DNA from: Escherichia phage dhaeg | Strand: one strand, 5' to 3' | Sequence record: MN850609.1 | DNA: 64,000 bases | In this document: one piece after another, positions 48 to 11,621 of the stretch | How positions within the stretch are numbered: the stretch's first letter is position 1 | How the letters are laid out: every line of letters starts with the position of its first letter | The notes under the pieces: model-generated | Told to the model about the DNA's origin: nothing | Database searches by the model: none | Seen by the model: the letters and a program-made list of their open reading frames with translations, nothing else | Made by a program: the position numbers and the translations under genes

Positions 48-122
48 GGATGTGTAGCTCAGTGGTAGAGCAGTTGACTGTTAATCAATTGGTCCATGGT
101 TCGAATCCATGCATGTCCGCCA
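48..122 (+). tRNA. tRNA-Asn (anticodon GTT)
   Basis: Cloverleaf by hand: acceptor GGATGTG/CATGTCC, D-arm GCTC..GAGC, anticodon stem GTTGA/TCAAT loop CTGTTAA, T-loop TTCGAAT, CCA end. Confidence 0.65.
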
Positions 123-126
123 AATA

Positions 127-202
127 CGAGGCATAGCTCAGAAGGAAGAGCAAGGACCTTCTAAGTCCTGGGTCGTAGGTTCGATCCCTACTGTCTCGAC
201 CA
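127..202 (+). tRNA. tRNA-Arg (anticodon TCT)
   Basis: Cloverleaf: acceptor CGAGGCA/TGTCTCG, anticodon stem AGGAC/GTCCT loop CTTCTAA, T-arm GTAGG-TTCGATC-CCTAC, CCA; T4 encodes tRNA-Arg(UCU). Confidence 0.8.
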
Positions 203-5093: not shown

Positions 5094-5314
5094 AATTAAA
5101 GAAAAGATACATTCGTAAAATAAATGGTCTTCGCGATTATGCCAAAGGTTGGCCGTTAAGTATTATTATGGCTGATAGACACCCACGTTATAATACCGAG
5201 TTGACCTATTATAAAAAGTATGATTCATATTGTCGGTCTAAAGCCGGTCGTTTAGATGGTTCTTATGAAGAATACTTTGGTAAAAAACCTACTCGTATTT
5301 CGTTAGGAAAATAA
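5087..5314 (+). CDS. Hypothetical basic protein (uncertain)
   Basis: ORF only; no clear SD. Confidence 0.3.
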   Translation: MLKLKKRYIRKINGLRDYAKGWPLSIIMADRHPRYNTELTYYKKYDSYCRSKAGRLDGSYEEYFGKKPTRISLGK

Positions 5315-10190: not shown

Positions 10191-10231
10191 GTTTACATCT
10201 CCGGTAGGCATGATACTATAGACCTATCAAC
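10191..10231 (+). promoter_or_regulatory. Early promoter cassette (GTTTAC-N17-TGaTACTATAGACCTATCAAC) with stem-loop arms ATCTCCGGTAG / CTACAGGAGAT
   Basis: GTTTAC 10191-10196, TACTAT 10214-10219; downstream arm includes SD of denV. Confidence 0.6.
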
Positions 10232-10245
10232 TACAGGAGATTAAA

Positions 10246-10662
10246 ATGACTCGTATCAACCTTACCTTAGTATCTGAATTGGCTGACCAACACTTAATGG
10301 CTGAATATCGTGAATTGCCACGTGTTTTCGGTGCAGTTCGAAAGCATGTTGCTAACGGTAAACGTGTTCGTGATTTTAAAATCAGCCCTACTTTTATCCT
10401 TGGTACAGGCCATGTCACATTCTTTTATGATAAGCTTGAATTTTTACGTAAGCGTCAAATCGAGCTTATAGCCGAATGTTTAAAACGTGGCTTTAATATC
10501 AAGGATACTACGGTCCAGGACATTAGTGATATTCCTCAGGAATTCCGTGGTGATTATGTTCTTCACGAAGCTTCTATCGCTATTTCACAAGCCCGTTTGG
10601 ATGAAAAAATTGCACAACGTCCTACCTGGTACAAACATTATGGTAAGGCGATTTATGCATAA
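10246..10662 (+). CDS. denV: Endonuclease V, pyrimidine-dimer DNA glycosylase
   Basis: Near-identical over full length to T4 endo V as I recall it ([35 protein letters not shown]...). Confidence 0.95.
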
Positions 10663-10800
10663 GGGAGCAACCTGGACCTCACAATTCTGTGAGGGACTCC
10701 CGCCAACCTGTAATAAGGTCGAGCCCAAGTGCGGTAATGGGTAAATGCAGAAAGGGACGAATTAATGTGCCAAGGAACGGCCCACAACTAAGAGACAACT

Positions 10801-11328
10801 ATGAAATTTTTAACCCCCATTTATCTAACCTTAATGCACGCCTTCGCTGAACGCGCCATTGAACGTTTAGACTCAGACCAATATACCTGGTATGAACCTA
10901 CTTCAAGAATGCAAGAGTTTGGTACTCTTCGACTTGACGGTGGGCGTCAAACAGGTAAAACAAGTGCCATTGCCCAGTTCGCAGCTGATTGGGTTTCCAA
11001 GGGTAATGATGTGATTGTTATGTCAAGTTCTTCGCACCGGTCACGCGAAATTTGTAATGTAATAAAAAGGGTTTCTAAGGCCCAACCACACCTTCAAGTA
11101 GAAGGTCCTGGGTTTGTTGTATATGATACCGTACGTTCATTTTTAGACGAAGATAACTTCCATAAGTATCGTGGTCTATCAGTTACTCGATTATTGATTA
11201 TTATCGAAGAGCCAATGCGCCTTCCAGCGATGGATAAGTTCTATGAAGCTTACCAGGTAATGATGAATAAATTTATGTGCCAGGGTTCTAAACCTCTGCC
11301 GCTGTTCTTTGTGATAGGAATGCAATGA
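10801..11328 (+). CDS. Hypothetical protein with Walker A-like motif
   Basis: GGRQTGKTS P-loop-like motif; ORF. Confidence 0.55.
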   Translation: MKFLTPIYLTLMHAFAERAIERLDSDQYTWYEPTSRMQEFGTLRLDGGRQTGKTSAIAQFAADWVSKGNDVIVMSSSSHRSREICNVIKRVSKAQPHLQVEGPGFVVYDTVRSFLDEDNFHKYRGLSVTRLLIIIEEPMRLPAMDKFYEAYQVMMNKFMCQGSKPLPLFFVIGMQ

Positions 11329-11621
11329 TGACTGATGAAGAGCTTTTTGAGTTCTGTTATTTCTCACGTAAGGTTCGAAGAGAGGACCTTACTACAAATT
11401 TCGAATATGCTTATTTCTATCCATTAGAATATGTATTCATGTCAGGGCCCTTTAAGGGCTCTCGTTTTAGATGTCATGCCCCAAGCATCCGATTAATGAA
11501 ACAGGTTCCTTACTTCACTCTCGAGTTCATCTCTGGGCCGTGTAAGGGTATTATTACTCGCAGTCTCTTGACGTATGACCAAGAGATTCATATGATTTCT
11601 GACTGGAAAAAATATGTCTAA
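11325..11621 (+). CDS. Hypothetical protein
   Basis: ATGATG overlap with upstream stop. Confidence 0.55.
   Translation: MMTDEELFEFCYFSRKVRREDLTTNFEYAYFYPLEYVFMSGPFKGSRFRCHAPSIRLMKQVPYFTLEFISGPCKGIITRSLLTYDQEIHMISDWKKYV

Follow-up and report, generated by a model that had tools for sequence, protein, structure and literature searches.

A pseudoknotted RNA element upstream of vs.8 in T4-like phages recurs in unrelated lineages of virulent phages

The 138-nt spacer between denV and the vs.8 homologue of Escherichia phage dhaeg (MN850609.1) is a non-coding RNA element, read from the plus strand within the denV-to-vs.8 transcript. Nucleotides ~10663-10750 fold into a compact pseudoknotted RNA, and horizontal transfer has distributed the element over five or more unrelated lineages of virulent phages. 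Positions are those of the window, the whole 64,000-nt stretch of dhaeg DNA under analysis. The novelty is an RNA family, carried by about 1,000 phage genomes including that of T4; that the family is real, structured and located on the gene strand we regard as very nearly certain. As to its role, we favor a cis-acting leader of vs.8 in dhaeg, with a probability of roughly 0.4.

The spacer, its neighbors and its distribution

The window belongs to a T4-like phage whose nearest record is Escherichia phage dhabil, and its gene order around the spacer is nudE, e (lysozyme), denV, spacer, vs.8 homologue. The immediate neighbors are:

10246-10662, plus strand: denV, the upstream gene in dhaeg, whose TAA stop ends at 10662
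10790-10803, plus strand: Shine-Dalgarno-like AAGAGA and the vs.8 ATG
10801-11328, plus strand: vs.8 homologue (phrog_1488), a single-domain P-loop ATPase of 175 aa

The original prediction, made from the letters of the window alone, had singled out a GC-rich non-coding stretch of 138 nt downstream of denV, at 10663-10800, with nested inverted repeats, no promoter cassette and a P-loop-motif gene downstream. Its coordinates proved exact. The GC content of the spacer is 51.4% against 39.1% for the window, at the 99.6th percentile of all 138-nt windows. The repeats are real, with GGGAG (10663-10667) and CTCCC (10697-10701) enclosing CCTCACA/TGTGAGG (10677-10683/10688-10694), and the downstream gene is the vs.8 homologue, whose Walker A motif is GGRQTGKT. 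Scanning the spacer revealed no sigma-70-like promoter, no intrinsic terminator and no PeSL-type promoter cassette; a promoter-like site lies 5' of denV at 10192-10219.

Other features of the window include tRNA-Asn(gtt) and tRNA-Arg(tct) at its start (48-202, plus strand), 10.5 kb 5' of the element on the same strand. Within an open reading frame at 11325-11621 there is a terminator-like hairpin (11444-11462, plus strand; 8 bp followed by CGTTTTAG) and a match to the group II intron domain 5/6 model (11338-11420, plus strand; 24.2 bits, E = 0.038). The gathering score of that model is 40, above the score of the match, which is probably due to chance.

All the T4-like genera examined (named from the records as Tequatrovirus, Gelderlandvirus, Kanagawavirus, Jiaodavirus, Moonvirus, Tegunavirus and Mosugukvirus) have the element immediately 5' of vs.8, irrespective of the upstream gene. 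denV is not a constant 5' neighbor, and internal-protein or hypothetical genes take its place in other T4-like phages. In some phages an inserted gene splits the intact element from vs.8. The AlphaFold model of vs.8 (pLDDT 86.8) is a single RecA-like/ASCE P-loop ATPase domain with weak likeness to helicase domain 1 of RecD, DEAD-box proteins and RadD and to the terminase ATPases T4 gp17 and phi29 gp16 (E about 1e-3, TM 0.35-0.54). Some vs.8 homologues carry a precomputed Pfam Terminase_6N match.

In BLAST searches the spacer alone matched 1,073 phage records, 540 of which cover at least 80% of it, at identities mostly of about 80-95% and up to 100%. A 701-nt query reaching from denV across the spacer into vs.8 matched many records, T2 and RB33 among them, in its spacer part alone, and vs.8 itself falls below 60% amino-acid identity in 951 of 1,016 records, with about 39% identity to the T4-type protein. 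Conservation is thus much stronger in the spacer than in the gene that follows it. In T4 (AF158101.6) the element occupies about 64,840-64,938 of the minus strand.

A core of 43 nt (10701-10743) recurs in five lineages. Besides T4-like phages, it is found in rV5-like Vequintavirinae (Vequintavirus JES2013, and a record named Campylobacter phage C9 that is classified as Vequintavirus and marked UNVERIFIED), in Pseudomonas Flaumdravirus KIL5 (the KIL phages), in the N4-like Klebsiella phage Pylas (Schitoviridae) and in Phapecoctavirus DE16, as well as in several uncultured viral and metagenomic contigs. A BLAST search of 5,426 complete genomes of E. coli with settings for distant matches gave none, so that no host or prophage copy was found there. 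When GGTCGAGCCNNNNNGCGGTAAT was scanned against 185,579 genomes of bacteria and archaea, it matched 72 times, about as often as chance predicts (~70 matches, given 17 fixed bases and both strands of 596 Gb). All 72 fall in GC-rich coding sequence, such as cysK-like genes, and none has the upstream hairpin of the element. One of these loci, L079, was the sole pass of a loose upstream filter and was rejected, being without the P3 hairpin or any other feature of the core; a looser pattern, GTCGAGCNNNNNNNCGGTAATG, gave mostly chance matches in viral contigs.

vs.8 is absent outside T4-like phages. Other lineages carry the element within tRNA gene arrays, where it occupies non-coding sequence at a distance of 0.13-0.85 kb from the tRNA genes, usually on their 5' side, and abuts no ORF; its strand is that of the tRNAs at 17 of 17 such loci. 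The rV5-like phages have a promoter-like site about 110 nt 5' of the element and a strong promoter between it and the next ORF. In the rV5-like group B2 (L007, L142, L164, L236, L238 and L240), CCCnUAGAGGG-CUUGAnAGUGC occurs on both sides of the element; judged by its sequence, this hairpin with a TTGAnA box may be a phage promoter/stem-loop unit. The element of group C belongs to a ~1-kb non-coding array with several modules closed by stems, its own covarying outer helix being GUUGUGAC/GUCACAAC. Long non-coding arrays beside tRNA clusters were seen in L005 (5100-5980, minus strand), Pylas (L363, 2335-3342) and DE16 (L364, 1143-3709), where AAGAGCAYUG/CAGUGCUCUU hairpins separate modules that are closed by GUUGUGRY...RYCACAAC stems. 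Between the element and tRNA-Ser, L005 has at least one additional structured module (~5110-5260).

Degenerate second copies of 30-41 bits occur at L329 1238-1269 (phage pzk-kv4), L349 5095-5135 and L352 9137-9177, which suggests recombination or duplication at the element. In pzk-kv4, where an inserted gene stands between the intact copy and vs.8, it is the degenerate copy that lies directly 5' of vs.8; the degenerate copies of L349 and L352 lie about 110 nt downstream of the intact ones.

Fold of the element and covariation of its helices

The element consists of a 5' stem (P1/P2), whose internal loop pairs with the 3' tail, and a three-way junction (Px/P3/P4, 10701-10743) in between. Its parts in the window, with the linker that follows, are:

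10663-10667, plus strand: 5' strand of P1 (GGGAG), paired with 10697-10701 by RNAfold and RNAalifold
10668-10676, plus strand: internal loop J1/2, CAACCUGGA, in which CUG (10672-10674) is the 5' strand of the pseudoknot
10677-10694, plus strand: hairpin P2 (CCUCACA AUUC UGUGAGG), whose length and loop vary between lineages
10697-10701, plus strand: 3' strand of P1 (CUCCC), partner of 10663-10667
10702-10705, plus strand: 5' strand of Px (GCC and A), which closes the three-way junction and pairs with 10738 and 10740-10742
10706-10719, plus strand: hairpin P3 (ACCU GUAAUA AGGU), loop consensus G-U-R-R-N-A
10720-10722, plus strand: J3/4 (CGA), invariant in the 33 cores of alignment A1
10723-10732, plus strand: mini-hairpin P4 (GC CCAAGU GC), with GC/GC nearly invariant
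10733-10742, plus strand: J4/x (GGUAA) and the 3' strand of Px (U, bulged G, GGU)
10748-10750, plus strand: 3' strand of the pseudoknot (CAG), partner of CUG at 10672-10674
10753-10785, plus strand: linker confined to T4-like phages, with an AGGGAC motif (consensus AUGGAY) and the hairpin GCC AAGGAAC GGC at 10769-10781

Our case for the element is built on conservation and covariation, and thermodynamics was left out as evidence. The folding energy of the single spacer sequence lies within chance (z = -0.4 to -0.8 against dinucleotide shuffles); it is conservation and covariation, rather than folding energy, that set the element apart from chance. Cores were aligned first as 33 distinct sequences (alignment A1) and then as 46, the latter fitted to the model, and an independent MAFFT alignment agrees. 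In the 46-sequence set 95.6% of core cells are paired, against 19-46% when the partners are slid by 1-3 columns. Seven of the ten core pairs have changed on both sides, and none of 500 shuffles reaches the covariation score. A covariance model has a single match in the 64-kb window, at 10701-10743 (71.9 bits, E = 3.5e-24). The core includes G-U pairs (for example GU 14 and UG 4), and since the opposite strand would have A-C mismatches in their place, the functional strand is the gene strand (plus).

The original prediction had raised the possibility of a structured RNA, serving the P-loop gene as a leader or processing site or acting as a small RNA, with conservation and covariation across related phages as the checks on it. 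The 1,073 matching records and the compensatory changes in the core support that idea on both counts. Two things go beyond it: the essential part is the downstream three-way junction (10701-10743) and not the hairpin noted first, and the element belongs to a widespread family that crosses phage families.

Px occurs with many different pairs. Among the 46 distinct sequences, one pair is CG in 32, GC in 10 and AU in 3; another is CG in 35, UA in 5, GC in 3, AU in 1 and GU in 1; and a third is AU in 31, CG in 5, UA in 5 and UG in 4. The sets seen include GCC/GGU, ACC/GGU, ACU/AGU, GAC/GUU, GGC/GCU, GCA/UGU and CUGG/CCAG. G10739 is bulged in this helix. A hairpin GCCC...GGGU was our first reading and was dropped for Px, and a register of Px without the bulged G is ruled out by covariation.

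The elements held within Px hardly change. P3 is nearly invariant, and its ACCA/UGGU in Pseudomonas phage KIL5 is compensatory. P4 has the loop consensus CnnAGy and one compensatory variant, GG/CC (L227). GGUAA of J4/x is, like CGA, invariant in the 33-core alignment A1. The invariant junction bases change only in distant T4-like phages, with CUA (phiR1-RT) or CAA (PM2) in place of CGA. Both Yersinia phage phiR1-RT (L366 601-643) and Pectobacterium phage PM2 (L367 596-637) keep the element 5' of vs.8, and these natural variants of the junction (CGA to CUA or CAA, GGUAA to GAUAA) would be useful for probing its function.

P1 is present in every lineage, ending directly before Px or one nucleotide earlier; the region is an asymmetric stem-loop that usually bears the variable hairpin P2. 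RNAalifold recovered P1 independently in four lineages, and it covaries within lineages. In T4-type phages GGGAG/CUCCC alternates with GGGAA/UUCCC (AU 11, GC 2), and elsewhere the equivalents are GGAAC/GUUCC, GAAUG/CAUUC against GAGUG/CACUC, and AAAGG/CCUUU against AAAGC/GCUUU. Two pairs of P2 show compensatory changes in T4-type phages (CG 12, UA 1; UA 8, UG 2, CG 1). Elsewhere its site holds an unrelated hairpin, or none in group C.

Pairing of the internal loop with the 3' tail draws its support from aligned covariation in the T4-like lineage. In T4-like phages of the Klebsiella/Enterobacter/Salmonella type, one position of the pseudoknot is CG in 9, AU in 5, UA in 4 and GC in 2, and the next position is GC in 13 and CG in 7. 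In the lineage of the window itself the pseudoknot consists of only 3 invariant base pairs, CUG/CAG. In the other lineages a complementary 3' strand (GCUGG, CCCUUAC, CCUCA, UGCUAU or UCCG) follows Px after 0-8 nt, and the paired strands are unrelated in sequence (CCAGC/GCUGG, GUGAGGG/CCCUUAC, UGAGG/CCUCA, AUAGCA/UGCUAU and CGGA/UCCG). The per-lineage shuffle tests were modest, reaching individual significance only in KIL5 (p = 0.011) and L007 (p = 0.021).

In T4-like phages the linker, AUGGAY and then the hairpin GCCAnGGAAUGGC, runs from the element to the Shine-Dalgarno sequence. It is kept across T4-like genera even though vs.8 falls to about 40% identity, and it is missing from the non-T4 lineages. 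A pairing of AUGGAY with GUCC in P2 was sought, and no consistent covariation was found.

Relation to known RNAs

The element is an RNA family new to Rfam, and each known family that was tested fails on a defining feature. None of the 4,227 models of Rfam 15, ribozyme and riboswitch models included, gave a hit in the spacer even at E <= 10, and the rV5-like, KIL, group C, L242 and L231 versions gave none at E <= 1. ARAGORN found no tRNA or tmRNA cloverleaf at the element, its only calls in the window being the tRNAs at 48-202. A literature search, which included the core sequence, found no description of the element.

The closest precedent within T4 itself is the pair of stable RNAs rnaC and rnaD (species 1 and 2), which are likewise small, structured and linked to tRNAs and demonstrate that T4-type phages do make such RNAs. 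Their locus lies 6 kb from the element in T4, and BLAST gives one element site per T4 record. Model R1 had no match at rnaC or rnaD, and its best score anywhere in the T4 tRNA region was 8.3 bits.

Riboswitch aptamers built on a three-way junction and a pseudoknot resemble the element in having invariant junction nucleotides inside covarying helices. They also share with the T4-like copies the position in a 5' leader and the combination of a conserved core with a lineage-specific downstream platform. The element differs from them in that no gene association is consistent across families, although the one with vs.8 holds within Straboviridae. We looked for a helix sequestering the vs.8 Shine-Dalgarno sequence, or for mutually exclusive pairing over it, and found neither.

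The phi29 pRNA is a phage RNA with a three-way-junction core, and the element adjoins an ASCE ATPase with weak likeness to packaging ATPases, including phi29 gp16. There is no sequence relation between the two RNAs, however, and the other families that carry the element are without vs.8. T4 packaging is not known to need an RNA, and vs.8 is not known to be essential. PeSL (promoter-early stem-loop) cassettes are, like the element, conserved intergenic modules of plastic regions in T4-like genomes, but the element is promoterless and GC-rich, shows covariation in several helices and also occurs outside T4-like phages. Further likenesses, to the 16S 530 loop (GCGGUAAU), RNase P RNA, the UGUAAU of SRP Alu, the K-turn and the sarcin-ricin motif, were set aside as short matches expected by chance or as failing the rules of the motif.

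Possible roles of the element

Our best guess is that the element is an autonomous RNA module which binds a ligand or protein and serves as the leader of vs.8. We propose that its helices would act as a scaffold and that the invariant junction would form a pocket in which a conserved partner, whether protein or small ligand, is recognized (or catalysis takes place). Among T4-like phages the module would be built into the 5' leader of vs.8 and joined to the ribosome-binding site by the lineage-specific linker, and it may control translation or stability of the vs.8 mRNA in cis, like an aptamer with its expression platform. In the other families the module, which lies in tRNA arrays, would act on those untranslated transcripts or be released from them.

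We favor the cis-acting leader because of the universal synteny in T4-like phages (directly 5' of vs.8 regardless of the upstream gene), the conserved linker to the Shine-Dalgarno sequence, and a core followed by sequence that differs in each lineage, which is the usual pattern of aptamer plus platform. Against it stand the lack of vs.8 and of any abutting ORF outside the T4-like phages, the rV5-like promoter that parts the element from the next ORF, and the outer helix in group C, which makes the element resemble a separate RNA gene. The search for Shine-Dalgarno-sequestering pairing or a terminator also came up empty, and some phages have an inserted gene between the intact copy and vs.8. 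A viable T4 deletion mutant (OL964745.1) has lost vs.8 to vs.3 and keeps the element; in this clone (L016 1764-1907) the element is joined, right after AUGGAC, to the regB promoter region. The best guess as a whole must also accommodate the unremarkable folding energy of the single sequence and the shortness of the pseudoknot in the window's lineage.

The main rival, possible but somewhat less likely, is that the element is instead a stand-alone, stable, trans-acting small RNA processed from polycistronic transcripts (denV-vs.8 in dhaeg, tRNA precursors in other phages). Such an RNA would bind or sequester a conserved host or phage protein, its adjacency to vs.8 being inherited synteny. Since the non-T4 carriers have neither vs.8 nor an abutting ORF, a function independent of any gene is the more parsimonious across families. 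The five unrelated phage families share no neighboring ORF, the element lies inside tRNA arrays on the tRNA strand, and the group C module is closed by its own covarying helix among similar modules. Two stable RNAs, rnaC and rnaD, are known to come from the tRNA cluster of T4, and a junction that is near-invariant across families fits recognition by a conserved partner. Two facts speak against a trans-acting RNA: in all T4-like genera examined the element keeps strictly to the 5' side of vs.8 and has a conserved linker, and in the window it has neither promoter nor terminator of its own. A recent study of the T4 transcriptome and proteome gives only RNAC and RNAD as T4 small RNAs and reports no such RNA, a weak argument given a library size-selected for 300-500-bp cDNA.

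It is unlikely that the element is a new catalytic RNA, self-cleaving or other, which would define transcript ends between denV and vs.8 in dhaeg and upstream of the tRNA arrays in the other families. New self-cleaving classes are rare, which gives this idea a low prior. The strand order of the element (P1 5', pseudoknot 5', hairpin, P1 3', Px domain, pseudoknot 3') is the nested double-pseudoknot order of HDV-like ribozymes, and in T4-type phages P1 begins 0-3 nt after the upstream stop codon. The features that define HDV-like ribozymes are missing, however, and no Rfam ribozyme matched. The catalytic C at the first position of J4/2, before the last strand, has no conserved counterpart in the element, where the segment between the 3' strands of Px and the pseudoknot is AAAUG in the window, AAAUA in T4, and elsewhere UUUACAUA, AUA, U, AAUU or absent. 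HDV-like ribozymes have a P3 of 3 bp and a C-containing L3 that forms P1.1, whereas the inner hairpin of the element has 3-7 bp and a variable loop (7 bp and AUUC in the window, GAAA or GACG elsewhere, with no hairpin in group C). Their P1 has 6-7 bp with a G-U at the cleavage site, and that of the element has 4-5 bp and starts with G-C. The conservation of the element sits in the domain equivalent to P4, which is dispensable in HDV-like ribozymes. The theta ribozymes of phages, themselves HDV-like, share with the element a small size, an intergenic phage location and an association with tRNAs (PMC10879173), and a small invariant core independent of context adds to the likeness. Their cleavage site lies within 5 nt of a tRNA (PMC10879173), in contrast to the 130-850 nt that part the element from the nearest tRNA in non-T4 phages and the 10.5 kb in the window.

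An antitermination RNA of the put type, acting on the host RNA polymerase, is less likely. One carrier, Pylas, is an N4-like phage with polymerases of its own, which counts against this reading.

We give very little credence to an element that acts as DNA, whether as a recombination joint, a homing site or a cassette boundary of the hypervariable e/internal-protein/denV region. Upstream genes are indeed swapped between T4-like phages while the element stays, and duplicated and decayed copies flank inserted genes. Compensatory changes with G-U pairs on one strand only, and the presence of the element in tRNA arrays of unrelated phage families, speak against this reading.

Least of all do we expect the region to encode protein, as an N-terminal extension of vs.8 (MRDSRQPVIRSSPSAVMGK..., T4 AF158101) or as a small ORF at 10689-10850, an idea to which we assign next to no weight. 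The T4 record (AF158101.6) annotates a 219-aa vs.8 at 64253-64912 (L017 1490-2149; the window counterpart is 10689-10800), starting inside P2 of the element, 44 codons before the conserved start, and in many T4-type sequences no stop codon interrupts this frame across the core. In the window it is out of frame with vs.8. The would-be start is ATG, GTG, TTG, CTG or absent, with changes that track P2 pairing, and no start codon is present in the rV5-like, KIL, L138 and L227 sequences. Of the 47 sequences compared, L231 and five loci of group C (6 in all) have a TAA at the core; there are also indels of one nucleotide, and each of the six frames is broken in at least one lineage. Third codon positions are as invariant as the rest, and no conserved open frame with a start codon was found across lineages. 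As the frame is not conserved in relatives, the vs.8 start in the T4 GenBank record is probably a mis-annotation. Several other GenBank records place CDSs named 'hypothetical protein' or 'vs.8' over the element.

The element corrects the annotation of vs.8 and offers a first functional lead for this orphan ATPase. In T4 it is more conserved than the surrounding proteins and has been hidden under a CDS of the reference record whose start is probably wrong; it would be a third small RNA of T4 besides the tRNAs, where so far only rnaC and rnaD have been recognized. For unrelated virulent phages to keep a core at about 90% identity implies that they face the same strong constraint, for instance from a host factor, a metabolite or catalysis. 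An object of ~90 nt in a tractable phage, with natural compensatory variants at hand, lends itself to study, and it is common to T4-like phages and four other lineages used in phage therapy and ecology. Tentatively, and with less than even confidence, we hypothesize that it represents a new functional class of RNA, either a self-cleaving ribozyme or a riboswitch or ribonucleoprotein partner of vs.8, that went unnoticed in T4 and is exchanged between phages. If this is true, its exchange among T4-like, rV5-like, phi92-like, N4-like and Pseudomonas phages would reflect the solution of a problem common to large virulent phages with tRNA arrays.
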